Origin: a virus
Lineage: Duplodnaviria > Heunggongvirae > Uroviricota > Caudoviricetes
Length of the DNA: 14,242 bases
IMG/VR virus record: IMGVR_UViG_3300029567_000055
Span: 1-14,242 of that record
Direction: 5' to 3' (one strand)
Positions 1 to 14,242 of the stretch are shown here, piece after piece. The notes under the pieces were generated by a model that was given only the letters and a program-made list of their open reading frames with translations, was not told where the DNA came from and did no database searches. Both the position numbers and the translations under genes were made by a program. Every line of letters begins with the position of its first letter. The stretch's first letter is position 1.

Positions 1-258
1 GAAGGGCTGCGCACGAAAGAACGCCAGAAACAGCTGGTCGCGGAAGGGAAAAGCCAGACCATGAACAGCCGCCACCTGACCGGTGATGCGGTGGATGTTG
101 TGGCCTACATTGGCAGCCAGGTGTCATGGGACTGGCCTCTGTACGAGAAAATCGTGCAGGCATTTAAGCAGGCTGCCGCAGAGCTGGGAACTGCCATCGA
201 ATGGGGCGGGGACTGGAAAACGCTGAAAGACGGGCCTCACTTTCAGTTGAAACGCTGA
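1..258 (+). CDS. Endolysin, peptidase M15/LAS family (likely L-alanyl-D-glutamate or D-Ala-D-Ala peptidase type); 5'-partial, C-terminal ~85 aa only
   Basis: Frame 1 is open from base 1 to the TGA at 256-258. The translation EGLRTKERQKQLVAEGKSQTMNSRHLTGDAVDV...DGPHFQL carries the SxHxxGxAxD and D...H zinc-ligand pattern typical of LAS/M15 phage peptidases. Its position immediately upstream of the packaging genes matches the end of a lysis cassette. Confidence 0.65.
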   Translation, partial: EGLRTKERQKQLVAEGKSQTMNSRHLTGDAVDVVAYIGSQVSWDWPLYEKIVQAFKQAAAELGTAIEWGGDWKTLKDGPHFQLKR

Positions 259-272
259 TAACCAGGTGTGTT

Positions 273-455
273 ATGAGCAGAAAACACTGGACACACAGAA
301 TGCCGCGAACGGCGGCGAAATGGGCACTGGTAGCGATACTGGTGCCTTTTTTATTGGTGGGATGCGTCAGCCTGGATAAGGCGCGCCAGCTTTTCGATAC
401 GGCTTCTCAGGTCTGCGAAATTGTTGACGGTGTTCGGCAGTGTCTGCAGAACTGA
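273..455 (+). CDS. Small lipoprotein (~60 aa precursor, ~30 aa mature), function unknown; lysis-cassette associated
   Basis: ATG at 273 follows AGGTG (264-268). The N-terminus MSRKHWTHRMPRTAAKW is basic, followed by a hydrophobic core ALVAILVPFLL and a lipobox L-V-G-C. The mature part has two more Cys. An alternative start is the ATG at 300 (MPRTAAKW). Confidence 0.5.
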   Translation: MSRKHWTHRMPRTAAKWALVAILVPFLLVGCVSLDKARQLFDTASQVCEIVDGVRQCLQN

Positions 456-626
456 TCGCCCGTAAGAGCAGAATATTTTGCTGAAAAATGAAGGATGCGT
501 CAGCGCCCGGAAAGCATGAAATTCTGTGTTTGCGGTCATTCAATAAAATAAATTCTTTCTTTCGCCGCGAATACTCAAATGTTGATCAGCGCCAGGTGCG
601 GCGACGGGCTTCGATATCAGGAGACG

Positions 627-905
627 ATGATGGGAAAAACAGAAAACAAACCGATTTTAGTTGGTGTCGCGTCTATTCCGTTTAAGTTTGAACTGTCACA
701 ACTGGTGGAAGTATGCATCAGTGATGAATGGGGTGAGGTTAAAGCTCGCGCTCAGTATGCAGATGGCGAAAACCAGTACTTGCTCCACTACAAAGCTGCT
801 GATGGTCGTGCCACGACGGAGTGGTTTGGTGAATCAATGCTGGAAGCAACAGAAGATGCTCGTCATCCGGGCTGTCCGGTATTTGCCTTCATGAAATTAC
901 CGTAA
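627..905 (+). CDS. Hypothetical small acidic cytoplasmic protein (~92 aa), moron-like
   Basis: AGGAG at 619-623 is followed by tandem ATGs at 627 and 630; 630 has the better spacing. The ORF is open to the TAA at 903-905. There is no TM segment or signal peptide and no motif I recognise. It is preceded by about 170 bp of AT-rich non-coding DNA. Confidence 0.5.
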   Translation: MMGKTENKPILVGVASIPFKFELSQLVEVCISDEWGEVKARAQYADGENQYLLHYKAADGRATTEWFGESMLEATEDARHPGCPVFAFMKLP

Positions 906-987
906 GGTGCGGTAGTTACTGAGTAACAGGCATTACAGCAGCCCTTCAGTGAGGGGCTGCGATAATGCCGGTATTAAGGAGATTCCA

Positions 988-1338
988 ATGCCATCACGAA
1001 TCCCCCGCGCATGCCGTAAGCGAGGTTGCGCAGGCACGACAACAGACAGCTCTGGCTACTGCGATAAACATCGGGGTGAAGGCTGGGTGCAGCACCAGCG
1101 CGGACTGAGCCGCCACCAGCGTGGCTATGGCTCAAAATGGACGGTGATTCGAGCCCGTATTCTGAAGCGCGATAAAGGTCTGTGTCAGTTGTGTCTGCGT
1201 GTCGGTGTGGTGCGCGAGGCGAAAACTGTCGACCACATCATCCCGAAAGCACATGGCGGAACAGATGCAGACAGCAACCTGCAGAGTCTGTGCTGGCCCT
1301 GCCACAAAGCGAAAACAGCGCGCGAACGAATCAGGTGA
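988..1338 (+). CDS. HNH endonuclease (terminase-associated)
   Basis: ATG at 988 follows AAGGA (976-980). The translation has Cys pairs (CRKRGCAG...CDKH; CQLCL...CWPCH) and the HNH core ...TVDHIIPKAHGG...N...CHKAK. It sits directly upstream of the terminase small subunit, as in HK97-like cos phages. Confidence 0.8.
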   Translation: MPSRIPRACRKRGCAGTTTDSSGYCDKHRGEGWVQHQRGLSRHQRGYGSKWTVIRARILKRDKGLCQLCLRVGVVREAKTVDHIIPKAHGGTDADSNLQSLCWPCHKAKTARERIR

Positions 1339-1485
1339 TAATTATTCTCACTTGTGGGGAGGGGCGGGTAAAATCCCTGCAGCCCTGGCTGCTCAGTACC
1401 GCCGCCTGACCTTTCCTCGCATCGCCGCAGGTTCGAAAACTTTTTTTTGGGAATGCGATCAAACGATTGATAGGTAAAACCGATT
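1339..1485 (+). other. Putative cos/packaging-initiation region (intergenic HNH-terS)
   Basis: A 147-bp non-coding gap between the HNH and terS genes, with a G-rich tract gtggggaggggcggg (about 1354-1368) and a T8 run (1441-1448). The assignment rests on position only. Confidence 0.3.
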
Positions 1486-1968
1486 ATGTCAGGACCCCCG
1501 AAAACCCCGCCACGCCTGCATTTGATACGAGGCAACCCATCAAAGCGCCCCGTTAAAGACCCCAAAAAAACCGCTAAAAAGGACGAAAAAGGTCTCCCTA
1601 AAATTCCGCAACATTTAGGGGCGCAGGGGAAGTACTGGTTCAGGCGAATGGCGGAAGAACTGAATGCGGAAGGGATCATTTCTCAGCTTGATGCGCGTGC
1701 ACTCGAGTTGCTGGTGGAAGCCTACACCGAATACCGGCATCACTGCGAAATACTCGATGTTGAGGGTTATACCTACCGCACGGAAACGCAGAACGGTGAT
1801 GTGCTGATTAAGGCACACCCGGCTGCTGCGATGAAAGCGGATGCCTGGAAGCGGATCCGGGCGATGCTTGCAGAGTTTGGTATGTCACCGGCAAGCCGGG
1901 CGAAAGTAAATACCGCCGGACCGGATGATGTTGATCCGCTGGCGGAACTTTTAAAAGCGAGAGACTGA
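1486..1968 (+). CDS. terS: Terminase small subunit, P27 family
   Basis: The 160-aa product has a basic Lys/Pro-rich N-terminus (KRPVKDPKKTAKKDEKGLPKIP) followed by ...YWFRRMAEEL...LDARALELLVEAY..., typical of P27-family TerS. Its stop overlaps the terL start as ATGA at 1966-1970. Confidence 0.8.
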   Translation: MSGPPKTPPRLHLIRGNPSKRPVKDPKKTAKKDEKGLPKIPQHLGAQGKYWFRRMAEELNAEGIISQLDARALELLVEAYTEYRHHCEILDVEGYTYRTETQNGDVLIKAHPAAAMKADAWKRIRAMLAEFGMSPASRAKVNTAGPDDVDPLAELLKARD

Positions 1969-3725
1969 TGGCAAAAGTGGCTGACGGGATCCGCTACGCC
2001 GAACGTGTTGTTGCAGGAGAAATTGTCGCTGGCGAATTTGTCCGTCTGGCCTGCCAGCGTTTTCTTGATGATCTGAAGTACGGCGAAGAGCGGGGGATTT
2101 ATTTCAGTGAACCCCGTGCGCAGCACATCCTGAATTTCTACAAATTTGTGCCCCATGTAAAAGGGGCGCTGGCAGGCCAGCCCATTGAACTGATGGACTG
2201 GCATGTATTTATTCTCATTAATATTTTTGGTTTTGTCATTCCGCTGGTCAATGAAGAGACCAGGGAAGTTGTTATGCGCAGCGATGGCAGCGGACGTCCG
2301 GTGATGGTGCGCCGGTTCCGGACGGCGTACAACGAAGTCGCCCGTAAAAACGCAAAATCAACCCTGTCATCGGGTATCGGTCTGTATATGACGGGGGCAG
2401 ATGGTGAAGGCGGGGCTGAGGTGTATTCAGCCGCAACCACGCGTGACCAGGCCAGAATCGTGTTTGAAGACGCCAAAAATATGGTCAGAAAAGCCCGGTC
2501 GACACTCGGGCGATTGTTTGATTTCAACAAGCTGGCGATTTACCAGGAGCAGAGCGCATCAAAATTTGAACCGCTTTCTTCGGATGCAAACAACCTGGAT
2601 GGTCTGAACATCCACTGCGCCATTATTGATGAGCTGCATGCACATAAAACCCGCGACGTGTGGGACGTTCTGGAAACGGCAACTGGTGCCCGTCTGCAGT
2701 CCCTGTTATTTGGTATCACCACGGCTGGCTTTAACAAGGAAGGGATTTGTTACGAGCAACGCGATTACGCCATCAAGGTATTGCGTGGCTATAACAGTGA
2801 CGTGGAGGGCGCGGTAAAAGACGACTCTTACTTTGCGATCATTTACACGCTCGATGAGGGAGATGATCCGTTTGATGAAACGGTCTGGCAGAAAGCGAAT
2901 CCCGGCCTGGGCATCTGTAAACGCTGGGATGATTTGCGTCGTCTGGCGAAAAAAGCGAAGGAGCAGGTTTCTGCGCGGGTGAATTTTTTCACGAAACACA
3001 TGAATGTGTGGGTCACTGCCGAATCTGCCTGGATGGACATGATTAAGTGGGAGAAGTGCGAATACATTGCTCCACAGCATGAGCTGAAAACATATCCCAT
3101 GTGGGTCGGTGTAGACCTTGCTCATAAGATTGATATCTGTGCGGCGGCAAAACTCTGGCGAACCGATAACGGACATGTTCATGCTGATTTTAAATTCTGG
3201 CTCCCGGAAGGACGGCTGGAGCGGTGCTCGCGGCAGCAGGCAGAACTTTACCGGAAATGGGCGGAGATGGATAAGCTCATCCTGACGGATGGTGATGTTA
3301 TCGATCATGCTCAGATAAAAAGTGACTTACTGGAATGGATTGGTGGTGAAAACCTGAGGGAGCTGGGATTTGACCCGTGGAGTGCAATGCAGTTCAGTCT
3401 GGCTCTGGCTGAAGAAGGGATACCGCTGGTGGAAGTTCCGCAGACGGTCCGCAATCTGTCAGAGGCTATGAAGGAAACGGAATCACTGGTCTATGCCGGG
3501 CGTTTTCACCACAGCAATCACCCGGTCATGAACTGGATGATGTCTAACGTTACGGTAAAACCGGACAAAAACGACAATATCTTCCCGAACAAATCCACGC
3601 CTGAAGCCAAAATCGACGGTCCTGTTGCGATGTTTACAGCAATGAGCCGGATGCTGGTCAATGGCGGTGAACCGGAGCCGGATCTGTCTGAGCATCTGGT
3701 CAGCGTTGGTATTCGCTCGCTTTAA
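1968..3725 (+). CDS. terL: Terminase large subunit (HK97-like, Terminase_1 type ATPase-nuclease)
   Basis: The 585-aa ORF contains [18 protein letters not shown] (Walker-A-like), ...[13 protein letters not shown] (Walker B / DExH-like) and a C-terminal nuclease-like region. It is translationally coupled to terS. Confidence 0.9.
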
Positions 3726-3736
3726 CCGAGGGCATT

Positions 3737-3919
3737 ATGTTTCTGATAATTCTCACGCCACTGGTGGGCGTGCTGGGGGCGCTTTTGCTGGCGTATGGCG
3801 CCTGGCTGATTTATCCCCCGGCAGGTTTTGTTGTTGCCGGGGCGCTGTGTCTGTGCTGGTCGTGGCTGGTTGCGCGTTATCTCGATCGCGGTCACCGGGT
3901 CGCCTCTGGAGGTGAGTAA
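3737..3919 (+). CDS. Small membrane protein, 2 predicted TM helices (60 aa), unknown function
   Basis: ATG at 3737 follows GAGGG (3727-3731). The translation shows two hydrophobic helices ([23 protein letters not shown] and [17 protein letters not shown]) and a charged tail. Its TAA overlaps the portal ATG (TAATG at 3917-3921), indicating translational coupling. Confidence 0.5.
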
Positions 3920-5160
3920 TGTTTTTCCAGGGGCTTTTTCAACGCAAAAATAACACCCCCGTCACAACGCCCGGGATGCTTGCGGAAGAGCTGGGGTTGT
4001 CATACGACACCTATACCGGAAAGCGGATCAGCAGCCAGCGGGCCATGCGGCTGACGGCGGTCTATTCCTGCGTCAGGGTGCTGGCTGAGTCTGTTGGTAT
4101 GCTGCCCTGCAGTCTCTACAAAATCAGCGGCACCCTTAAAACACGGGCGGTGGATGAACGGCTGCATAAGCTGATTTCGGCAAAACCCAATGGCTACATG
4201 ACGCCGCAGGAATTCTGGGAACTGGTTATCGTCTGCCTGTGTCTGCGGGGTAATTTTTACGCCTACAAGGTAAAGGCACTGGGGGAAGTGGTGGAGCTTC
4301 TTCCGATAGATCCGGGCTGTGTGGAACCGAAGCTGAACAGCCAGTGGCAGCCGGTTTATCAGGTGACGTTTCCGGATGGTTCCGTGGATGTGCTGACCCA
4401 GAATGAAATCTGGCATGTGCGTACCCTGACGCTGGATGGACTTGTCGGTCTGAATCCCATTGCATATGCGCGCGAGGCCATTTCACTGGCAGCGGCAACC
4501 GAGGAGCATGGTGCCAGATTGTTTGGCAATGGCGCGGTAACATCCGGTGTGTTGCGTACGGATCAACAACTTTCTGACCAGGCTTATGCGCGTATCAAAA
4601 AGGATTTTGAGGAACGGCATGTCGGGCTGGGAAACTCTCATCGTCCGATGATTCTGGAAATGGGGCTGGACTGGAAAACGGTGGCACTGAATGCCGAGGA
4701 CAGCCAGTTCCTGGAAACCCGCAAGTTTCAGCTGGAAGAAATCTGTCGCCTGTTCCGCGTGCCGCTGCATATGGTGCAGAACACCGATCGCGCCACCTTC
4801 AACAATATTGAAGAGCTGGGGCTTGGTTTCATTAACTATTCCCTTGTGCCGTATCTGACCCGTATTGAGCAGCGGATCAATACAGGGCTGGTCAGGGAGA
4901 GCAAGCAGGGAAAATTTTACGCCAAGTTTAATGCCGGAGCATTGTTGCGTGGCGACATGAAATCCCGCTTTGAAGCGTATGCCACGGGGATCAACTGGGG
5001 GATTTATTCCCCTAATGACTGCCGTGATCTGGAAGATATGAATCCCCGACCGGGCGGTGATGTGTATCTGACACCGATGAACATGACCACCAGTCCCTCT
5101 GCTGGCGATGACAACGGTAAGAAAAAGGAGAGTGGAGATGCAGACAAAACAGCGTCTTGA
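3919..5160 (+). CDS. Portal protein, HK97 family
   Basis: A 413-aa ORF immediately after terL in the canonical position, with the size and sequence character of HK97-family portals. Its 3' end overlaps the protease gene. Confidence 0.85.
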   Translation: MFFQGLFQRKNNTPVTTPGMLAEELGLSYDTYTGKRISSQRAMRLTAVYSCVRVLAESVGMLPCSLYKISGTLKTRAVDERLHKLISAKPNGYMTPQEFWELVIVCLCLRGNFYAYKVKALGEVVELLPIDPGCVEPKLNSQWQPVYQVTFPDGSVDVLTQNEIWHVRTLTLDGLVGLNPIAYAREAISLAAATEEHGARLFGNGAVTSGVLRTDQQLSDQAYARIKKDFEERHVGLGNSHRPMILEMGLDWKTVALNAEDSQFLETRKFQLEEICRLFRVPLHMVQNTDRATFNNIEELGLGFINYSLVPYLTRIEQRINTGLVRESKQGKFYAKFNAGALLRGDMKSRFEAYATGINWGIYSPNDCRDLEDMNPRPGGDVYLTPMNMTTSPSAGDDNGKKKESGDADKTAS

Positions 5161-5788
5161 TATACCGCTGAACCTGAAATCCGTCAGTGATTCCGGGGAA
5201 TTTGAAGGTTACGGTTCTGTTTTTGGTGTTAAGGACAGCCACGATGATGTGGTGGTCCCCGGAGCCTTTACCACAACACTCCAGAAATGGAGCGAAAAAA
5301 AGGCGCTGCCTGCGTTGCTCTGGCAGCACCGCATGGATGAGCCCATCGGTGTGTACACCGAAATGAAAGAAGATGATGTCGGGCTTTATGTCAGGGGACG
5401 ATTACTCATTGATGATGATCCCCTGGCAAAACGTGCACATGCCCATATGAAGGCCGGTTCTTTAACCGGCCTTTCTATTGGCTACATCCTGAAAGACTGG
5501 GAGTACGACCGGGAAAAAGGGGTATTCCTGCTGAAAGAGATCGACCTGTGGGAGGTCAGTCTGGTGACGTTTCCTTCCAATGATGAAGCACGCATCAGCG
5601 ATGTGAAAAATGCGCTGGCGCGTGGGGAGATCCCTGATCAGAAAATTATTGAGCGGGTCCTGCGCGATGTTGGACTCTCGCGAACCCAGGCCAAAGCATT
5701 CATGGCCGGGGGATATGGCGCTTTATCCCTGCGTGATGCTGAGGATGTGGATGCCGCACTGAATGCACTGAAAAATCTTAAATTTTAA
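5138..5788 (+). CDS. Prohead maturation protease, HK97 family (S78/U35)
   Basis: ATG at 5138 follows AAGGAG (5126-5131). The product MQTKQRLDIPLNLKSVSDSGEFEGYGSVFGV.DSHDDVV.PGAF is the characteristic N-terminus of HK97-type prohead proteases. The gene lies between portal and capsid. Confidence 0.85.
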   Translation: MQTKQRLDIPLNLKSVSDSGEFEGYGSVFGVKDSHDDVVVPGAFTTTLQKWSEKKALPALLWQHRMDEPIGVYTEMKEDDVGLYVRGRLLIDDDPLAKRAHAHMKAGSLTGLSIGYILKDWEYDREKGVFLLKEIDLWEVSLVTFPSNDEARISDVKNALARGEIPDQKIIERVLRDVGLSRTQAKAFMAGGYGALSLRDAEDVDAALNALKNLKF

Positions 5789-5801
5789 TCAGGAGTAAAT
5801 A

Positions 5802-7028
5802 ATGGCTGTTGATATTAAAGACGTTGAACAGGTCGCGCAGGATTTGCAGCAGAAGTTTGACGATTTTAAGGCAAAAAACGACAAGCGCATTGACGCGATC
5901 GAACAGGAAAAAGGCAAGCTGGCCGAACAGGTGGAAAGCCTGAACGGGCAAATCAGCGAGCTGGAGAACCTGAAAAGCGACCTGGAAAAAGAGCTGGCAG
6001 ACATCAAGCGTCCGGCAGGCGGCACGCAAAATAAAGTTGCCGGTGAACACAAAGAAGCGTTTATCGGATTTATGCGCAAGGGGCGTGAAGACGGTCTGCG
6101 TGAACTTGAACGTAAGGCGCTTCAGGTAGGTAATGATGAAGATGGTGGTTATGCCATTCCGGAAGAACTGGATCGTACCATCCTGACGCTACTGAAAGAT
6201 GAGGTGGTGATGCGCCAGGAAGCCACTGTGATCACCCTCGGTGGCTCGGATTATAAAAAACTGGTGAATCTGGGCGGCACAACGTCCGGATGGGTGGGGG
6301 AAACGGATGCTCGTCCGGAAACCGCCACCTCAAAACTGGGTCTGATTGAACCCTTTATGGGGGAAATCTACGGCAACCCGCAGGCCACCCAGAAAATGCT
6401 CGATGATGCTTTCTTCAATGTGGAAGACTGGATCAACAGTGAGCTGGCGCTGGAATTTGCCGAGCAGGAAGAAATTGCCTTTACCAGTGGCGACGGCAGC
6501 AAAAAACCAAAAGGTTTTCTGGCTTACGAGTCCACCGATGAAGATGACAAGACCCGTGCGTTTGGCAAACTTCAGCACATTGCTTCCGGTGCGGCTTCCG
6601 GCGTGACTGCCGATGCGATCATTAAACTGATTTACACCCTGCGCAAGGCGCACCGCAGCGGCGCGAAGTTTATGATGAACAACAGCAGCCTGTTTGCCAT
6701 TCGTCTGCTGAAGGATAACGACGGAAATTATCTGTGGCGTCCGGGTATTGAGCTGGGTCAGCCTTCTTCTCTGGCAGGGTATGGCATCGTTGAGAATGAA
6801 CAGATGCCGGATATTGCTGCCGATGCAAAAGCCATTGCGTTTGGTAACTTCAAACGTGGCTATACCATCGTTGATCGCATCGGTACCCGTATCCTGCGCG
6901 ATCCGTACACCAATAAACCGTTTGTGGGTTTTTACACCACCAAGCGAACCGGCGGTATGCTGGTGGATTCTCAGGCGATTAAGCTGATGAAAATTGGGGC
7001 CGCAACCCGCCAGAAAGCCGCTGCGTAA
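5802..7028 (+). CDS. Major capsid protein, HK97 fold, with N-terminal coiled-coil delta (scaffold) domain
   Basis: ATG at 5802 follows AGGAG. The first ~100 aa are heptad-rich and charged (DLQQKFDDFKAKNDKRIDAIEQEKGKLAEQVESLNGQISELENLKSDLEKELADIK). The remainder has the size and composition of an HK97-type capsid protein. No separate scaffold gene is present. Confidence 0.9.
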   Translation: MAVDIKDVEQVAQDLQQKFDDFKAKNDKRIDAIEQEKGKLAEQVESLNGQISELENLKSDLEKELADIKRPAGGTQNKVAGEHKEAFIGFMRKGREDGLRELERKALQVGNDEDGGYAIPEELDRTILTLLKDEVVMRQEATVITLGGSDYKKLVNLGGTTSGWVGETDARPETATSKLGLIEPFMGEIYGNPQATQKMLDDAFFNVEDWINSELALEFAEQEEIAFTSGDGSKKPKGFLAYESTDEDDKTRAFGKLQHIASGAASGVTADAIIKLIYTLRKAHRSGAKFMMNNSSLFAIRLLKDNDGNYLWRPGIELGQPSSLAGYGIVENEQMPDIAADAKAIAFGNFKRGYTIVDRIGTRILRDPYTNKPFVGFYTTKRTGGMLVDSQAIKLMKIGAATRQKAAA

Positions 7029-7040
7029 TGCGGTTTTTTA

Positions 7041-7062
7041 TGCCCGCACAGTGTTGCGGGCA
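7041..7062 (+). promoter_or_regulatory. RNA stem-loop immediately upstream of the connector-gene RBS (8-bp stem tgcccgca/tgcgggca, 6-nt loop)
   Basis: A perfect 8-bp inverted repeat at 7041-7048 and 7055-7062. The 3' arm abuts GGAG (7063-7066) and the ATG at 7073. A weak ccgc/gcgg stem plus T6 (7018-7039) lies just upstream, spanning the capsid stop codon. Confidence 0.35.
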
Positions 7063-7072
7063 GGAGTTTCTG

Positions 7073-7390
7073 ATGGCAGCAATAGTGGAAAAACTCAGGG
7101 CGCAGTGCCGTATTGATACAGATGATGCAACTGATGATGAGTTACTGATGCTGTATTTCCGGGCTGCCTGCCGCAAGGCAGAAAATTTTATCAACCGTAA
7201 GCTTTATGAGGAGACGGTGCCGGAAGGTGATCCTGACGGGGTGCTTATAGCTGATGATGTTTTGCTGGCGCTCATGTTGCTGGTCGGACACTGGTACGAA
7301 AACCGGGAAAATTCCTCAGATGTCAGCAAGGCACCAGTTCCGTTTGGTTTTTCTTCTCTGCTGGAGCCTTATCGTTTTATTCCTTTGTAG
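7073..7390 (+). CDS. Head-tail connector protein (gp6-like / Phage_connect_1 type)
   Basis: ATG at 7073 follows GGAG. The product MAAIVEKLRAQCRIDTDDATDDELLMLYFRAACRKAENF matches the L..K.HLRID.DD.D..I...I.AA pattern of gp6-like connectors. It lies directly after the capsid gene. Confidence 0.65.
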   Translation: MAAIVEKLRAQCRIDTDDATDDELLMLYFRAACRKAENFINRKLYEETVPEGDPDGVLIADDVLLALMLLVGHWYENRENSSDVSKAPVPFGFSSLLEPYRFIPL

Positions 7391-7398
7391 GAGGAACC

Positions 7399-7737
7399 AT
7401 GCAGGCGGGCAGATTACGTGATCGCGTAACTATTCTGAATGTCACCACCGTCCGTTCTCCGTCAGGGCATCCGGTGGAGACAATGACGGAGGGGGCAACC
7501 GTATGGGCAGAAGTTAAGGGGATCAGCGGGAGGGAGAGAATATCAGGAGGTGCAGAAACCGCTCAGGCTACGGTCAGAGTCTGGATGCGATTTCGGCGCG
7601 ATGTGACAGCGACTTCACGTCTGAAAGTGCTGACCGGTGCATTTAAAGGGGTCACTCTTGGTATAGAAGGGCCACCAATACCGGATGCACGCGCCACCCG
7701 GCTTGAAATGCTCTGCAGTCTGAAGGGGAATGTGTGA
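7399..7737 (+). CDS. Head closure / head-tail joining protein (Phage_H_T_join type)
   Basis: ATG at 7399 follows GGAGG. The product MQAGRLRDRVTI...VWAEVKGISGRE...RVWMRFRRDV...RLEMLC fits the head-closure family profile. Its stop overlaps the next gene's start. Confidence 0.7.
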   Translation: MQAGRLRDRVTILNVTTVRSPSGHPVETMTEGATVWAEVKGISGRERISGGAETAQATVRVWMRFRRDVTATSRLKVLTGAFKGVTLGIEGPPIPDARATRLEMLCSLKGNV

Positions 7738-8183
7738 TGGATTTCAGTCTTGATTTTTCAGGTCTGGCGGATATTGCACGGGATCTGGAGACGCTCAGCA
7801 GGGCAGAAAACAATAAGGTTCTGCGCGATGCCACCCGTGCCGGTGCTGAAGTTATGCGGGATGCAGTTGTTGAACGTGCGCCGGAGCGAACCGGGAAACT
7901 GAAGAAAAATGTGGTTGTTCTCACGCAGCGTTCAAAGCGTCGGGGGGAAATTATCTCGGGTGTCCACATTCGCGGACGGAACCTGCGAACCGGAAACAGT
8001 GATAACAGCATGAAAGCCAGCGATCCCCGAAATGCGTTTTACTGGCGCTTTGTGGAGCTGGGAACGATAAACATGCCCGCGCATCCGTTCATTCGCCCGG
8101 CTTTCGATACGACAGAGGAACTGGCAGCACAGATTGCCATACAGCGAATGAATCAGGCTATTGATGAGGTCTTAAGTAAATGA
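7737..8183 (+). CDS. HK97 gp10-family protein (neck / tail-completion component)
   Basis: ATG at 7737 overlaps the upstream TGA (7735-7737); a GTG at 7734 is an alternative start. The motifs ...RAPERTGKLKKNVVV... and ...YWRFVELGTINMPAHPFIRPA are characteristic of the HK97 gp10 family. Confidence 0.75.
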   Translation: MDFSLDFSGLADIARDLETLSRAENNKVLRDATRAGAEVMRDAVVERAPERTGKLKKNVVVLTQRSKRRGEIISGVHIRGRNLRTGNSDNSMKASDPRNAFYWRFVELGTINMPAHPFIRPAFDTTEELAAQIAIQRMNQAIDEVLSK

Positions 8184-8524
8184 GGGAAGCCACACTGTAT
8201 TCCCTGCTGTCTCAACTGGCCGGAGGACAGGTTTATCCTTATGTGGTCCCGCTGACGGAGGGAAAGCCTGCGGTATCTCCGCCGTGGCTGGTGTTTTCTG
8301 TGGTGTCTGACACGGCGTCTGATGTGCTTGATGGTCAGGCTGAATCCAGAATTACCGTGCAGATCGATGTCTGGGCAACAGTACCTGATGACGCAGATGA
8401 TATCCGTGAGCAGGCGCTTGATGCGGTAAGGCAACTTGCACCCTCCGTTATTTCTAAAACTCAGGGTTATGATCCTGATTCCCGTCTGAGCAGAGCCACG
8501 CTTGAATTTCAGGTAATAGCCTGA
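8180..8524 (+). CDS. Tail terminator / tail-completion-like protein (DUF3168 or gpU-like, tentative)
   Basis: ATG at 8180 overlaps the upstream stop (ATGA). The 114-aa product lies between the neck genes and the major tail gene, the position occupied by U-like tail terminators. The family assignment is by position and size. Confidence 0.5.
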   Translation: MREATLYSLLSQLAGGQVYPYVVPLTEGKPAVSPPWLVFSVVSDTASDVLDGQAESRITVQIDVWATVPDDADDIREQALDAVRQLAPSVISKTQGYDPDSRLSRATLEFQVIA

Positions 8525-8544
8525 GGTCGTTAATGATTTTACCC

Positions 8545-8571
8545 ACCCGCCGCTGGCGGGTTTTTTATTTT
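8545..8571 (+). terminator. Intrinsic (rho-independent) terminator
   Basis: A GC stem cccgcc (8546-8551) / ggcggg (8555-8560) with loop gct, extended by a45:t61, followed by TTTTTTATTTT (8561-8571). It lies in the gap between the DUF3168-like gene and the major tail gene. Confidence 0.6.
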
Positions 8572-8583
8572 CAGGAGACGAGT

Positions 8584-9288
8584 ATGTCCTCTAATTTTGA
8601 GCGTTCGCAACTGACGAAAATTATGATTTCGTCTGCACCGGTAACAGCAGAAACCCTGGATTCTGCCAGCTATCTTGGCCTGAGCTGTACAATCAAAGAG
8701 GTGCAGTTTACCGCAGGACAAAAGCAGGATATTGATGTCACCACGCTGTGTTCTGTTGAGCAGGAAAATATTAACGGCCTTGGTGCCGCGTCAGAGATTT
8801 CCATGTCAGGCAACTTTTACCTCAATGCTGCCCAGAACGCGTTGCGCAGTGCCTATGACAATGACACCACGTATGGCTTTAAAGTTATTTTTCCGTCAGG
8901 CAACGGATTTACCTTTATGGCAGAGGTGCGTCAGCATACCTGGTCTGCAGGAACTAATGGTGTTGTGGCTGCAACGTTTTCCCTGCGCCTGAAAGGTAAA
9001 CCTGTGCTGACGACAGAGCCGCTGAAAGTGAAGGTCGATTTAAACAGCACGCTGCAGGTTTCTGCCGGAGCGAAACTCGAAATGGTGGTTGAGGCTGCCG
9101 GTGGTGTGCCGCCTTATTCTTATGTCTGGAAGAAAGGTAGTTCTCCTGTTTCCGGACAGACGGCGGCAACATTCAGTAAGGCATCAGCAGCATCAGGTGA
9201 TGCCGGTGCGTATACCTGCGAGATTTCTGATTCAGCAAGCCCTGTTAACAAGGTGACCTCCACTTCCTGCACTGTTACCGTCAGTTAA
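8584..9288 (+). CDS. Major tail (tube) protein with C-terminal Ig-like domain
   Basis: ATG at 8584 follows CAGGAG (8572-8577), downstream of the terminator. The N-terminal ~150 aa are tail-tube-like. The C-terminal ~90 aa (LQVSAGAKLEMVVEAAGGVPPYSYVWKK...GDAGAYTCEISD...CTVTVS) has the I-set/Big-like Ig signature (W...Y.C). Confidence 0.75.
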   Translation: MSSNFERSQLTKIMISSAPVTAETLDSASYLGLSCTIKEVQFTAGQKQDIDVTTLCSVEQENINGLGAASEISMSGNFYLNAAQNALRSAYDNDTTYGFKVIFPSGNGFTFMAEVRQHTWSAGTNGVVAATFSLRLKGKPVLTTEPLKVKVDLNSTLQVSAGAKLEMVVEAAGGVPPYSYVWKKGSSPVSGQTAATFSKASAASGDAGAYTCEISDSASPVNKVTSTSCTVTVS

Positions 9289-9302
9289 TGAGGATAGATG
9301 TG

Positions 9303-9674
9303 ATGACTAAAAATATCCGCAATCTGGCACTGGCAACGATGTCGGGGTTTCGCCATAAAACTGTTGATGTGCCTGAATGGGAAGGGGCAACGGTTGTATT
9401 ACGGGAACCTTCTGCAGAAGCCTGGTTGCGCTGGCAGGAGATCGTTAAAGCAAAAGATGATGAGACACCGTTATCCGTTGCGGAGCGCGCCCGCCGAAAT
9501 CTGGAGGCAGATGTTGAACTGTTCATTGATGTTCTGTGTGATACCGGACTGCAACCTGTATTTTCAGAGGATGATCGTGAACAGGTGATTGCCGTGTATG
9601 GCCCGGTGCATGCGCGGCTTCTTCGGCAGTCTCTGGAACTGATCAGTGATGCCGGCGAGGTTAAAAAAAAGTAG
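9303..9674 (+). CDS. Tail assembly chaperone (lambda G-like), frame-0 product
   Basis: ATG at 9303 follows AGGAT (9291-9295); an in-frame ATG at 9288 overlaps the upstream stop. The ORF ends ...EVKKK-TAG at 9672-9674, directly on an A8G slippery run. It lies immediately upstream of the tape measure gene. Confidence 0.75.
   Translation: MTKNIRNLALATMSGFRHKTVDVPEWEGATVVLREPSAEAWLRWQEIVKAKDDETPLSVAERARRNLEADVELFIDVLCDTGLQPVFSEDDREQVIAVYGPVHARLLRQSLELISDAGEVKKK
9665..9671 (+). promoter_or_regulatory. Programmed -1 ribosomal frameshift slippery heptamer A_AAA_AAG (G/GT-type)
   Basis: Frame-0 codons are AAA(9666-8) AAG(9669-71) TAG. The -1 frame is blocked by TAA at 9662-9664 but open from 9665 to 9976, so a slip on this heptamer fuses the chaperone to the downstream ORF. 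Confidence 0.65.
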
Positions 9675-9976
9675 AGCTTCCGGGGATGCGTTTTCTGATG
9701 ATGCTGGCGCTCAGGATGGGGCGCACATTGTCAGAGTTACGCCGGGAAATGTCCGCATCAGAAATCATGATGTGGGCAGAATTTGACAGGTACAGCCCGC
9801 TGGGTGACGAGCGGGCTGATATCCGGGCTGCCCAGATAGTTTCTGCGGTTTACGGTGCGCAGGGTGTCAAAGTCCCACTGAATGATGCGCTTCTTCAGTG
9901 GGAACAAGAGCAGACAGAAGGCGTCTCAGATCCATTTGCCGGACTGGAAAACGCGCTTTTAATAGTGTCTCAGTGA
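9665..9976 (+). CDS. Tail assembly chaperone frameshift extension (lambda T-like part of a G-T fusion)
   Basis: This is the -1 frame relative to the chaperone, open 9665..9976. It has no Shine-Dalgarno of its own before the first ATG at 9686. The predicted fusion junction is ...EVKKK-K-VELPGMRFLMM.... Confidence 0.6.
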   Translation, partial: KKVELPGMRFLMMLALRMGRTLSELRREMSASEIMMWAEFDRYSPLGDERADIRAAQIVSAVYGAQGVKVPLNDALLQWEQEQTEGVSDPFAGLENALLIVSQ

Positions 9977-9984
9977 GTCAACAT

Positions 9985-10006
9985 AACCGCTTCGGCGGTT
10001 TTTTTC
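9985..10006 (+). terminator. Intrinsic terminator with UUCG tetraloop
   Basis: Stem aaccgc (9985-9990) / gcggtt (9995-10000) with loop ttcg, followed by a T-run through 10005. It lies between the G-T extension stop (9976) and the tape measure start. Confidence 0.6.
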
Positions 10007-10015
10007 GTCCGGAGA

Positions 10016-13000
10016 ATGAGTGTGGCGACATTACGTGAACTGATTATTAAAATCTCGGCAAATTCCCGGTCATTCCAGTCAGAGATCTCCCGGGCTTCGC
10101 GTATGGGGCAGGATTACTACCGTACCATGCAGAACGGAGGCCGGCAGTCCGCTGCTGCATCCCGTGAAATGCGGCGTGCACTGGCAGAAGTGACGGATCA
10201 GATAAATACAGCTAAATCTTCGGCACTGAATATGGCGGGGGCATTTGCCGGAGCTTTTGCTACNNNNNNNNNNGTCATCTTATTTCTCTCGCCGATGAGT
10301 GGAATTCAGTAAATGCCCGTCTGAAGCAGGCTTCACAGTCCAGTGATGATTTTCAGGTATCACAACGTGAATTAATGGCAATCAGCCAGAGAACGGGAAC
10401 GGCGTTTTCTGATAACGCCAGCCTTTTTGCCCGCTCTGCAGCTTCCATGCGGGAGTATGGCTACAGTTCTGAGGAGGTACTGAAAGTCACCGAGGCGATC
10501 TCCACGGGCCTGAAATTATCCGGTGCCAGTACAGCAGAAGCCAGTTCGGTGATCACGCAGTTCAGTCAGGCACTGGCGCAGGGAGTGCTGCGCGGTGAAG
10601 AATTTAACTCTGTGAATGAGAACGGCGATCGTGTTATTCGTGCGCTGGCTGCGGGAATGGGTGTTGCCCGTAAGGATCTGAAGGCCATGGCGGATAACGG
10701 AAAACTGACCGCCGATAAGGTTGTTCCTGCACTGATTAGTCAGCTTGGGGCGTTGCGTGATGAATATGCAGCAATGCCTGATACTGTTTCATCCTCTGCA
10801 ACCAAAGTTGAAAACGCCTTTATGGCCTGGGTTGGTGGTGCGAACGAGGCAAGCGGAGTGACAAAGACACTCACCGGGGTGTTGAATGGTGTTGCAGACA
10901 ATATTGATACCGTGGCTGCTGCAGCTGGCGCACTGGTTGCCGTCGGGGTAGCCCGATATTTTGGCAATATGGCGTCGTCTGCTGGATCTGCAACTGCCGG
11001 ATTAATTACTGCAGCCAGAAACGAAGTGGCTCTTGCTGAAGCGCAACTTCGGGGGACACAGATAGCAACCGCCAGGGCGCGTGCGGCGGTTTATCGTGCG
11101 CAACAGGCGGTTGTTGCTGCTCGCGGTACCGAAAGGCAGGCCGCAGCAGAAGCGAAGCTGACAGCTGCCCAGGCGTCACTTACCCGTAATATTGCGGCCA
11201 GAACAGCGGCACAGACAACGCTGAATACTGTCACGTCAGTGGGGAGTCGTCTGTTAAGTGGTGCGCTGGGGTTGGTTGGTGGTGTGCCGGGACTCGTCAT
11301 GCTGGGGGCGACGGCCTGGTACACGATGTATCAGAATCAGGAGCAGGCCAGAGAATCTGCACGCCAGTATGCCGCAACAATCGACGAAATTCGCCAGAAA
11401 ACGTCGGCAATGTCGCTTCCTGAAGCGTCAGATAATGAGGAAAAGACGCGGCAGGCACTTGATGAGCAAAACAGGTTAATTGACGAGCAGAAAAGTAAGA
11501 TTAAATCCTTACAGGAAAAAATTGCTGGCTATCAGTATGTGCTGGCAAACCCGGGCTGGACAACCGATAACGGTTTTATGATTAACCACATGACGTCGGT
11601 AAAAACTGTCACAGAAGGGCTTGCAGAAGCAACAAATCAACTGGCAGTTGAACAGTCCCGTCTCACACAAATGCAGGGCAAAGCGCAATCCATTCAGGAT
11701 GTGCTTGCCGGGCTGGAGGAGCGACGGGTGGCGTTGATCCGTCAACAGGCCGCGGAACAAAACAAAGCGTATCAGTCCCTGTTGATCATGAATGGGCAGC
11801 ATACCGAGTTTAATCGCCTTCTCGGGCTCGGTAATGAATTACTTCAGCAGCGACAGGGGCTGGTGAATGTACCGTTACGGCTACCACAGGCAACCCTGGA
11901 TGATAAACAGCAGACCGCACTGAATAACAGCGAGCGCGAACTGGCTCTGTCCCGCCTGAAGGGGGAAGCCCGTGAGCGTGCCCGCCTGGGTTATGCTGCG
12001 GATGATCTCGGCTTTGTGGGAGAGGCGTATCAGACAGCCAGACAGAATTATATCAATAACTCACTGGATGCCTGGCGAAATAACCAGGCAAATAAACCCA
12101 AAGCGCATAAAAAGACCGAAGCGGAAAAAACAGAAGATATTTATAAACGGCTGATTAAACAGCAAAAAGAACAAATAGCACTGGCAGGGCAGAATACTGA
12201 ACTGGCTAAGATGAAATATCAGGTCAGTCAGGGCGAATTATCAACCCTGTCAGAAGCGCAGAAAAAAACGCTTTTGCAGAATGCAGCACTCATCGACCAG
12301 AAAAAGATTCGTGAGCAGCTTGCTGCGTATGAGAGCAGTCTGGCGGACAGTAATGCCAGTGCCCGGGCATCTGACGACGCGCAGTTGCTGGGATATGGTG
12401 AAGGCTCACGGATGCGTGAACGACTCCAGGAAATGTGGAGTATCCGGCAGACGTTTGAGCAGAAAAATAACGAACTGCTGAGACAGTATCAGGCCGGAGA
12501 AATTGAAGAAGCCCTGTGGAAACAGGAGAAAGAACTGAATAAAAAATATCTGGAAGAGCGTCTCAGCGATCAGCAGGATTATTATGCAAAGGCCGATGCT
12601 TTACGTAATAACTGGAATGCCGGACTCCAGGAAGGACTGACCAACTGGGCAGACAGTGCCACCGATTATGCTTCACAGGCGGCAGATGCTGTCGTTTCCA
12701 CGATGGACGGGCTGGTATCAAATATTTCCGATGCACTGGCCGGGAATGTTGTGGAGTGGAGGAACTGGGGGAGTTCAGTTCTCCGGGAAGTTTCAAAAAT
12801 TCTGATGAATGCAGCCATTGTTAACGGACTGAAATCACTCTCCGGTGCCGGAGGGTGGCTTGGTACGGTCGGCGGATGGATTTCGGGGGCGGTGGCAAAC
12901 GCAAAAGGTGGTGTTTACACATCGGCAAATCTGAGTGCTTACAGTAACACTATTGTGGATACACCGACGTATTTTGCTTTTGCGAAAGGTGCCGGGCTGA

Positions 13001-13257
13001 TGGGTGAGGCCGGGCCTGAAGCTATCATGCCACTGACACGGGCAGCGGACGGCTCTCTTGGGGTCAGAGCCATTGGCAATGTGAATGGTGGCGGTGGATT
13101 TGTTTATTCTCCCGTGTATCACATCAGCATTCAGAATCAAGGGAGCAATGGCGAGATAGATACGCGCTCAGCCAGGGGACTGGTGGATCTGATCGACAGC
13201 AGGGTTGTGTCAATTATGCAGTCATCGCGTCGGGATGGAGGATTATACAGTGCCTGA
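10016..13257 (+). CDS. Tail tape measure protein (lambda H-like), interrupted by a 10-N assembly gap
   Basis: ATG at 10016; a GTG at 10022 has better spacing from GGAG (10011-10014). The frame after the gap is open from the Ns through the listed 10375 start, reading ...HLISLADEWNSVNARLKQASQSSDDFQVSQRELMAISQ.... The product is long, Ala/Gln-rich and coiled-coil in the middle. The C-terminal part (...NWADSATDYASQAADAVVSTMDG...GGLYSA) resembles the lambda gpH C-terminus. The ORF track's 10016..10312 and 10375..13257 pieces are one gene. Confidence 0.8.
10264..10273. other. Assembly gap (run of 10 N)
   Basis: A literal nnnnnnnnnn in the sequence; the true length is unknown. The apparent frame change across it is therefore uninformative. 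Confidence 0.95.
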
Positions 13258-13591
13258 GCCTGAAGTTTTTAACTGGATCCCCCGTGAGGGGATGGAGACG
13301 ACACGAAAGCCATCAGTTATTACGGTAAAGTTTGGTGACGGATATGAACAGCGACGGGCTGGTGGTCTGAATGCGGATCTGAAAACGTTTAAACCGGTAT
13401 TTCGTGTCACAGATGAATACTCCCGTGCCGCGCTGGACAGTTTTTTATCCCGTCATGCCGGGATTCGTGCTTTTTTGTGGCGTCCGCCAAAACACAACAG
13501 GACTGTCCGGGTTGTCTGCAGGGAGTGGAGCATTTCGGATAATGCCATGTATACCGATTTTAACTGTACCTTTGAAGAGGTCACTCACTGA
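13250..13591 (+). CDS. M: Minor tail protein M (lambda gpM-like)
   Basis: GTG at 13250 follows GGAGG (13237-13241) and overlaps the tape measure stop. The product ...VKFGDGYEQRRAGGLNADLKTF...FLWRPP...VVCREWS... parallels lambda M (FGDGYSQRAPAGLNANLKTY...FLWTPP...VTCAKWS) as I recall it. Its stop overlaps the next ATG (ATGA at 13589-13593). Confidence 0.8.
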   Translation: MPEPEVFNWIPREGMETTRKPSVITVKFGDGYEQRRAGGLNADLKTFKPVFRVTDEYSRAALDSFLSRHAGIRAFLWRPPKHNRTVRVVCREWSISDNAMYTDFNCTFEEVTH

Positions 13592-14242
13592 TGCAGGATA
13601 TACAGCAGGAAACACTCAATGAGTGCACTAAAACGGAGCAATCCGCGCTGGTCGTGCTCTGGGAAATTGATCTGACAGAGGTCGGCGGAGATCGTTATTT
13701 CTTCTGTAATGAGCAGAACGAAAAAGGTGAAGCAGTCACCTGGCAGGGGCGGCAGTATCAGGCCTATCCCATTCAGGGAAGTGGATTTGAGATGAACGGT
13801 AAAGGAGCCAGTGCAAGGCCAACTCTGAAAGTCTCTAATCTGCACGGCATGGTCACAGGGATGGCGGAAGATCTGCAGAGTCTGGTCGGCGGAACGGTGG
13901 TCCGGCGTAAGGTTTACGCCCGTTTTCTGGATGCGGTGAACTTCGTCAACGGAAACAGCGAAGCCGATCCGGAGCAGGAGGTAATCAGCCGCTGGCGCAT
14001 CGAGCAGTGCAGCGAACTGAGCGCGGTGAGTGCCTCCTTTGTACTGTCCACGCCGACGGAAACGGATGGCGCTGTTTTTCCGGGGCGCATCATGCTGGCC
14101 AACACCTGCACCTGGACCTATCGTGGTGATGAGTGTGGTTATAGCGGTCCGGCGGTCGCGGATGAATATGACCAGCCGACCTCCGATATCACGAAGGATA
14201 AATGCAGCAAATGCCTGAGTGGCTGTAAGTTTCGCAATAACG
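13591..14242 (+). CDS. L: Minor tail protein L (lambda gpL-like), 3'-partial
   Basis: ATG at 13591; the frame is open to the window end. My translation MQDIQQETLNECTKTEQSALVVLWEIDLTEVGGDRYFFCNEQNEKGE...CTWTYRGDECGYSGPAVADEYDQPTSDITKDKCSKCLSGCKFRNN is near-collinear with lambda gpL as I recall it, including the C-terminal Cys cluster. Confidence 0.9.
   Translation, partial: MQDIQQETLNECTKTEQSALVVLWEIDLTEVGGDRYFFCNEQNEKGEAVTWQGRQYQAYPIQGSGFEMNGKGASARPTLKVSNLHGMVTGMAEDLQSLVGGTVVRRKVYARFLDAVNFVNGNSEADPEQEVISRWRIEQCSELSAVSASFVLSTPTETDGAVFPGRIMLANTCTWTYRGDECGYSGPAVADEYDQPTSDITKDKCSKCLSGCKFRNN

Follow-up and report, generated by a model that had tools for sequence, protein, structure and literature searches.

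We analyzed a 14,242-nucleotide stretch of tailed-phage DNA (IMG/VR record IMGVR_UViG_3300029567_000055, positions 1 to 14,242 of that record; hereafter, the window), which is the left arm of an Escherichia coli prophage with an HK97/lambda-type structural module as recognized by Pfam. We looked into a short gene that lies there between the genes for the large terminase, TerL (1968..3725, + strand; assigned by Pfam), and the portal (3919..5160, + strand; PF04860, Pfam E = 8e-107), of which TerL proved to be the exchangeable and the portal the constant partner. The short gene (3737..3919, + strand), which belongs to the YmfR/PHROG 502 family and is called here the hairpin gene after the predicted shape of its product, starts with an ATG at 3737, has 60 codons, and ends with a TAA at 3917-3919. 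The TerL stop codon occupies 3723-3725, and the hairpin ATG starts after an 11-nt gap that holds a Shine-Dalgarno (SD) sequence, GAGGG (3728..3732, + strand), 4 nt 5' of the ATG. At the other end, the stop codon overlaps the portal start codon in TAATG (3917..3921, + strand), the last A of the TAA being the first A of the portal ATG, and the portal SD, GGAGG (3908..3912, + strand), lies within the last codons of the hairpin open reading frame (ORF). A preliminary description of this DNA had reported a 60-residue ORF that has an SD of its own and overlaps the portal start in TAATG, and both features were confirmed.

Conservation was assessed in 103 loci bearing a relative of the hairpin gene. 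The ORF, whose persistence in relatives the preliminary description had left to be checked, was intact in 102 of these loci (52 distinct protein sequences) and showed purifying selection: the ratio dN/dS (Nei-Gojobori) was 0.30 over the full ORF and 0.21 within residues 1 to 48, with the C-terminal tail near neutral (pN/pS = 0.83). For identical locus pairs, dN/dS was 0.084 for the portal gene and 0.236 for the hairpin gene. The other five frames gave values of about 0.9 to 1.7, the exception being the antisense wobble-mirror frame (0.45). The sole disrupted copy, in Shigella flexneri CP182557.1 (locus L023, 4078-4182), is frameshifted, and the flanking TerL and portal genes still match there. 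The layout TAAC(C/T)GAGG..ATG, 9 to 13 nt past the TerL stop, recurs in nearly all related loci, and a one-base overlap with the portal start (TAATG, TAGTG, or TGATG) is found at all but three of the tabulated family junctions; the three exceptional loci encode a 52-aa hairpin variant with a 3-nt gap to the portal gene. The overlapping ORFs at 3661-3915 (+ strand) and 3722-3895 (− strand) were rejected as genes, having no coding signature and not being open in every locus. An RNA element in place of a gene was rejected as well, since there was no Rfam match and the fold of 3715-3935 was no better than that of shuffled sequences (z = −0.32). These results establish 3737-3919 as a real, selected gene.

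One promoter-like site was found where 1.4 were expected, its −10 element falling inside the hairpin ORF; terminator-like sites were not enriched, and the terminator annotated within the homolog of phage SfII is a weak 5-bp stem. The GC content of the hairpin gene (60%) exceeds that of its flanks (51 to 54%) because of its Gly, Ala, Leu, and Trp codons, and its GC content at third codon positions (GC3; 63%) is close to that of the portal gene (62%).

The encoded protein is strongly hydrophobic (47 of 60 residues; grand average of hydropathy [GRAVY], +1.18). Kyte-Doolittle hydropathy stayed high across residues 1 to 47 except for a drop at YPPAG, and AlphaFold2, run with a 64-sequence alignment, gave helices at residues 2 to 25 and 27 to 52 (mean predicted local distance difference test score, 72); the two methods thus agree on the pair of transmembrane (TM) helices that had been noted earlier from the letters. 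Among the 64 aligned members, the number of Lys and Arg residues per sequence averaged 0.70 for the N terminus and 2.61 for the C-tail, against 0.09 for the loop. Basic residues at both ends and nearly none in the loop imply that both termini face the cytoplasm and the turn the periplasm, and on these grounds the hairpin protein is predicted to be an N-in/C-in two-helix inner-membrane protein. TM helix 1 (residues 2 to 25; 3740..3811, + strand) holds the superfamily-invariant G14 and G21; the tight periplasmic turn Y-P-P-A-G (residues 26 to 30; 3812..3826, + strand) is delimited by its conservation and its low Lys and Arg content; TM helix 2 (residues 31 to 47; 3827..3877, + strand) carries the invariant G35 and the conserved C38 and W41-S42 and has a basic residue at its end; and the variable basic cytoplasmic tail (residues 48 to 60; 3878..3916, + strand) closes with Gly-Gly-Glu codons that serve as the portal ribosome-binding site. 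The superfamily as a whole has just three invariant residues, G14, G21, and G35, in a core that is followed by a basic residue, and the core sequence around these glycines is retained down to about 30% identity. The close family additionally conserves W23, Y26, P27, P28, C38, W41, and S42; in its turn, Y26, P27, P28, and G30 are invariant and A29 is nearly so.

Tandem double-hairpin (four-helix) versions of the family arose in three independent cases, two of which precede a portal gene, and these suggest that the unit may work at least as a dimer. The three proteins are P0155, P0171, and P0222, with coordinates 2434-2760 in locus L362 and 127-495 in locus L361; P0171 lies in locus L359 (96-3376) after proteins of 161 aa and 320 aa and before a 100-aa protein and an S78 prohead protease, and no recognizable portal or terminase was found in that interval. 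Searches of NCBIfam, PADLOC, and a PDB sequence profile returned no relative of the hairpin protein, Pfam gave sub-threshold TM noise only, and Foldseek against the PDB returned just V-ATPase subunit e (E = 3).

The junction with the portal gene has the marks of translational coupling, as the preliminary description had held. An SD-like tetramer stands 5' of the portal start in 103 of 103 loci, and the C-terminal Gly-Gly-(Glu/Asp/Lys) of the hairpin protein is most plausibly conserved because its codons, GGAGGTGAG, are the portal SD. With the stop overlap, this SD inside the hairpin ORF ties hairpin synthesis to portal synthesis. A stem-loop at 3902..3934 (+ strand), present in both the minimum free energy and the centroid structures, pairs the portal SD with portal codons 2 to 6, and its loop contains the start codon. 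Many junctions of the ATG type have such a stem and those of the GTG type lack it; the z-scores are weak, and the stem fits translational coupling.

We found 165 homologs of the hairpin protein. RefSeq lists the identical protein as WP_000478597.1 ("hypothetical protein", E. coli prophage), and it is present on 987 contigs; the protein is also 80% identical (E = 2e-25) to YmfR of the E. coli K-12 element e14 (b1150, "IPR020297 domain-containing protein"), and it matches phrog_502 ("membrane protein") at E = 6.1e-26 over profile positions 3 to 56 of 58. By these matches the gene is an ordinary, already cataloged member of the YmfR/phiP27 L37/PHROG 502 family; the preliminary description had the anatomy right and missed the existing catalog entry. 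The family is also present in phages SfI, SfII (gp3), SfIV, ST64B (Sb3), phiKO2 (Gp3), and Marinobacter AS1, and weaker tblastn matches were obtained in PY54 and Azospirillum Cd. YmfR, L37, SfII gp3, Sb3, and phiKO2 Gp3 are all about 60 aa long, with two helices, a place in the TerL-portal slot, and a stop/start overlap, like the window protein, which differs from these and other PHROG 502 members in nothing essential. In K-12, ymfR is flanked in this slot by remnants of a terminase gene (aaaE) and a portal gene (beeE) and is nonetheless still an intact 60-codon ORF (locus L004, 9550-9732), which could be chance for a 183-nt target or could reflect a host-level benefit. The literature searched held no functional study of YmfR, L37, or a small membrane protein from between terminase and portal, and mentioned ymfR only in lists of e14 deletions and in one overexpression screen.

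Database labels for the family are inconsistent ("hypothetical", "membrane protein", "moron", "head-tail joining protein W"). The phiP27 L37 protein and the SfII homolog are labeled "putative integral membrane protein", and PHROG 502 carries the category "moron, auxiliary metabolic gene and host takeover", which appears to rest only on the "membrane protein" label. Homologs in ON470580.1, ON470584.1, ON470603.1, and PQ793804.1 bear the name "head-tail joining protein W". Lambda gpW is a soluble head-tail joining protein, and the likeness is one of position only, a small gene between large terminase and portal, whereas the hairpin protein is hydrophobic (GRAVY, +1.18). The gpW identity was rejected, as Pfam gave no gpW match at E ≤ 1 and the protein is instead a predicted integral membrane hairpin; judged by sequence, the label is a positional misannotation, apparently taken from the lambda-like slot. 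The data argue that the family belongs to the head/packaging module. Enterobacterial-like portal genes, hairpin genes, or both also turned up in Martelella alba (L020), in a metagenome-assembled "Bacillota bacterium" (L013), and in Enterococcus phage Efm 3-10 (H64, 1764 bp); in these three records the hairpin is 49 to 80% and the portal about 74 to 86% identical to those of the enterobacterial prophage, and they are probably contamination or misbinning.

The portal is the neighbor with which the hairpin gene is consistently associated. In all family loci (about 100), the next gene encodes a portal at least 73% identical to that of the window, while the TerL 5' of the hairpin gene falls into two classes, 72 to 100% or 35 to 38% identical to the window TerL. 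The Mantel correlation of the hairpin was 0.83 with the portal and 0.66 with TerL. At locus L022, no TerL match was found upstream of the hairpin gene, the region holding fragmented ORFs only. Megablast alignments break at about 3668 and about 3707: phage Evi and its relatives match TerL only as far as about 3668, and phiP27, SfII, and SfIV match the window from about 3707 onward. The Evi TerL is 99% identical over residues 1 to 567 and has its tail replaced, and the last 13 to 18 residues of TerL are common to both TerL classes beside this portal clade, the two being otherwise 35 to 38% identical. The TerL C-terminal tail (residues 568 to 585; 3669..3722, + strand) therefore forms the left edge of an exchange module and follows the portal clade, the unit of exchange being the TerL tail, the hairpin gene, and the portal gene. 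This behavior of the tail is what would be expected if it were a portal-binding element.

We then compared portal clades that are mutually 28 to 40% identical. A member of the hairpin family stood upstream of phiKO2-type portals in 79 of 79 loci, and Evi-type portals had a 53-aa hairpin in 78 of 78 (phrog_7105, which cross-matches phrog_502 at E = 1e-6). HK97-type portals, in contrast, had a small upstream ORF in none of 80 loci, the TerL stop overlapping the portal start in 79; the earlier remark that a membrane protein here lies outside the canonical HK97 pathway is thus correct, for in HK97 there is no such gene and the end of TerL itself overlaps the portal start. When 1.84 billion cluster representatives were searched with a profile, 501 matched at E ≤ 1e-3, nearly all of 45 to 90 aa. 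Nine remote members were inspected, and seven had a recognizable portal (PF04860 or PHROG) directly downstream; as to the remaining two, one contig was too short, and L359 had no recognizable portal. The point that this analysis adds is that the hairpin gene is constantly paired with particular portal lineages and is not cargo. Among phages with a PF04860 portal, a domain that 2058 phage records matched, two-helix ORFs with weak or no similarity to the family also occupy the TerL-portal slot in Vibrio K260 (L353, 741-944), Pseudomonas D3 (orf3; L358, 627-791), and Ralstonia YO151_1 (L369, 640-804). The family hidden Markov model scored K260 at 21.7 bits and did not match D3 orf3; such look-alikes suggest either very old divergence or repeated recruitment of hairpins to the slot.

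Elsewhere in the window, Pfam identified an HNH endonuclease (949-1338) and a P27-family small terminase (1486-1968). The HNH gene lies directly 5' of the small terminase gene (949-1968), an arrangement typical of cos-packaging HK97-like phages. The further head genes recognized by Pfam encode an S78 prohead protease, an HK97-fold capsid protein, a gp6-like connector, a head completion protein, and a gp10-like protein, and the tail genes encode a gp17 tail completion protein, an Ig-domain tail tube protein, chaperones G and T, and the tape measure protein. The tape-measure gene shows as two ORFs (10016-10312 and 10375-13257) because a run of 10 N at 10265-10274 interrupts it; in the identical-type prophage NZ_CP087564.1 it is a single gene of 3228 nt. 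The tail genes of the window are of the lambda-like siphovirus type; SfII, SfIV, and ST64B are myoviruses. Two complete E. coli chromosomes match the 901 bases around the hairpin gene at 100% identity, and of 5426 complete E. coli genomes, 1377 contain related sequence. Upstream of its HNH and small terminase genes, the identical E. coli prophage encodes an M15 endolysin and two holins.

As to function, we tentatively favor, at well short of even confidence, a role as an inner-membrane accessory of the portal or of prohead initiation, by analogy with the role, and not the sequence, of gp40 of phage T4. In its favor are the selection on the hairpin gene, its linkage to the portal within the exchange unit and across clades, the recurrence of family members before remote portals and of look-alikes in the slot, the coupling features, and the double hairpins. 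The T4 portal protein gp20 assembles on the inner membrane with the phage chaperone gp40 and host YidC, which help it become the membrane-bound initiator of the prohead (PMC4493910, PMC9958956). Like gp40, the hairpin protein is phage encoded and tied to the portal (in gp40, to portal function), and its membrane association, established for gp40, is predicted. On this reading, the hairpin protein would be inserted in the inner membrane, most likely posttranslationally through YidC, as is usual for short hairpins, and its glycine-lined helices would drive self-association, at least to a dimer. The assembled hairpins might then form a membrane site that concentrates new portal subunits into the ring that starts prohead assembly; alternatively, the portal/terminase vertex might dock at the membrane hairpin. 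Since HK97 and several other clades lack it, the protein would be an accessory and no part of the core.

A number of observations weigh against such a role. T4 gp40 itself differs in being acidic, 114 aa long, and without a hydrophobic hairpin; its gene lies between uvsX and gene 41, away from the portal gene, and BLASTP of the hairpin protein against gp40 gave no alignment at E ≤ 100. The conserved residues of the hairpin protein are confined to the membrane and the periplasmic turn, and the cytoplasmic tail, which would be the obvious contact for a soluble portal, is nearly neutral (pN/pS = 0.83); the portal itself has no TM segment. A hairpin in the slot was absent from HK97, Pm34, Mcat22, fLi-Aba03, vB_E175, 16-3, and three Gram-positive phages. 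Coinheritance with the portal could, moreover, be hitchhiking between a coadapted TerL tail and portal. We considered the hydrophobic portal N terminus (MFFQGLF, MLLDALF, and the like in hairpin-linked portals) as a point of contact and dropped it as evidence because several hairpin-less portals share such starts (hairpin versus hairpin-less portals, Mann-Whitney P value = 0.07, n = 16 and 9). Tethering of the mRNA through cotranslational insertion was rejected too: such tethering is unlikely for a 60-residue protein, which comes off the ribosome with its first helix not yet well exposed, and it would also leave the conserved intramembrane residues unexplained.

A different account, which we regard as rather unlikely, makes the hairpin protein a late membrane effector unrelated to the head, acting as a modulator of holin triggering or of lysis timing or as a holin-like peptide that mildly permeabilizes membranes, with the slot merely giving it low, late expression. 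Class II holins and pinholins (e.g., S21 of phage 21) are small proteins with two TM segments, an N-in/C-in topology, and a basic C terminus, and the hairpin protein resembles them in size, in its two helices, and in its predicted topology and may be likened to them in its basic C terminus. That every conserved residue is intramembrane, as for helix-helix contacts with other membrane proteins, would also suit an effector. The hairpin gene differs from class II holin genes in lying outside the lysis cassette and in following the portal lineage, and its product differs in having no dual-start motif, no long charged C-terminal domain, and a very short tail of about 12 residues that is variable and partly dictated by the portal SD. 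The holin families in Pfam (E ≤ 1) and PHROGs were unmatched, the best PHROG being "membrane protein", and the prophage has its own separate cassette of two holins and an endolysin, so that the holin or pinholin identity raised as speculation in the preliminary description was not supported. The gene also tracks the portal clade across phages whose TerL body and tail genes, the other modules compared, differ. An ASKA clone of ymfR gave a D-alanine release halo at 0.1 mM isopropyl-β-D-thiogalactopyranoside, in the first screen only (PMC10299036), and this can be counted in favor of an effector. The authors of the screen noted, however, that halos may reflect leakage or lysis, and the effect is unspecific because the halo was shared by 65 of the 392 membrane-protein clones (PMC10299036).

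We think it quite improbable that the hairpin protein is a superinfection-exclusion or lysogenic-conversion moron like gp15 of HK97, one that alters the inner membrane so that the DNA of an incoming phage is kept out. Exclusion is a frequent role of small proteins of the inner membrane (HK97 gp15 is labeled "moron product" and T4 Imm "immunity to superinfection"), PHROG 502 is filed in the moron category, and YmfR is intact in the defective e14 amid remnant terminase and portal genes. Like the hairpin protein, HK97 gp15 has about 60 aa and a hydrophobic N-terminal part and is encoded inside the structural operon of an HK97-like phage. The two show no similarity, however: gp15 has a single hydrophobic segment and a long polar tail in place of two helices, and its gene, which is followed by a terminator of its own, is flanked by those for the tail chaperone and the tape measure protein. 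The hairpin gene lacks a separate promoter and terminator, for which the 11-nt gap leaves no room; its GC3 is like that of the portal gene; PADLOC gave no match; and it is fixed across whole portal clades (78/78, 79/79, and about 100 loci) and not sporadic. It is also independent of tail type, whereas exclusion usually targets the route of entry. The suggestion of superinfection exclusion or a membrane-targeted cargo gene, made in the preliminary description, is unsupported on the same points.

Equally doubtful, in our judgment, is a packaging or ejection factor, which would either tether the TerL/portal motor to the membrane during packaging or, as a minor component of the virion that leaves through the portal, help DNA across the inner membrane of the next host. 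The hairpin gene does sit between the genes for both motor components, within the unit of TerL tail and portal, and T7-like phages encode small virion proteins just upstream of the portal gene (PMC13320782). A protein in which 47 of 60 residues are hydrophobic is, however, unlikely to be a soluble capsid passenger, the gene is found with siphovirus and myovirus tails alike, and HK97 packages its DNA without a hairpin. Least credible of all is a functionless peptide whose ORF is kept only as a spacer, one that by being translated links TerL translation to portal translation and that carries the portal ribosome-binding site: the SD embedded in all loci, the stop/start overlap at all but three tabulated junctions, the SD-occluding stem in some junction types, the nearly neutral tail, and the direct TerL/portal overlap by which HK97 achieves its coupling would all suit it, but the purifying selection on residues 1 to 48 (dN/dS = 0.21), the invariance of G14, G21, and G35 in a core kept to about 30% identity, the conserved length and two-helix architecture, the existence of double hairpins, and the lack of unusual RNA structure (z = −0.32) or an Rfam match speak against it.

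If the hairpin protein acts instead in lysis or exclusion, it is just another small phage membrane protein. For a portal/prohead accessory the meaning would be wider. HK97-like phages have no separate scaffolding protein, and a conserved membrane protein that is coupled to portal translation and coinherited with the portal is a concrete candidate for what has each prohead start on one portal ring. We further raise, as a speculative extension that is more doubtful than the accessory role itself, that the hairpins and the look-alike ORFs may together be a widespread and unrecognized class of proteins that partner the portal in the HK97-like phages of Proteobacteria, forming an oligomeric inner-membrane ring or patch that nucleates or holds the portal dodecamer. 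If this were true, many HK97-like phages would, like T4, begin to assemble their heads at the membrane, and the hairpin would give a way into the question of how a prohead comes to have exactly one portal.

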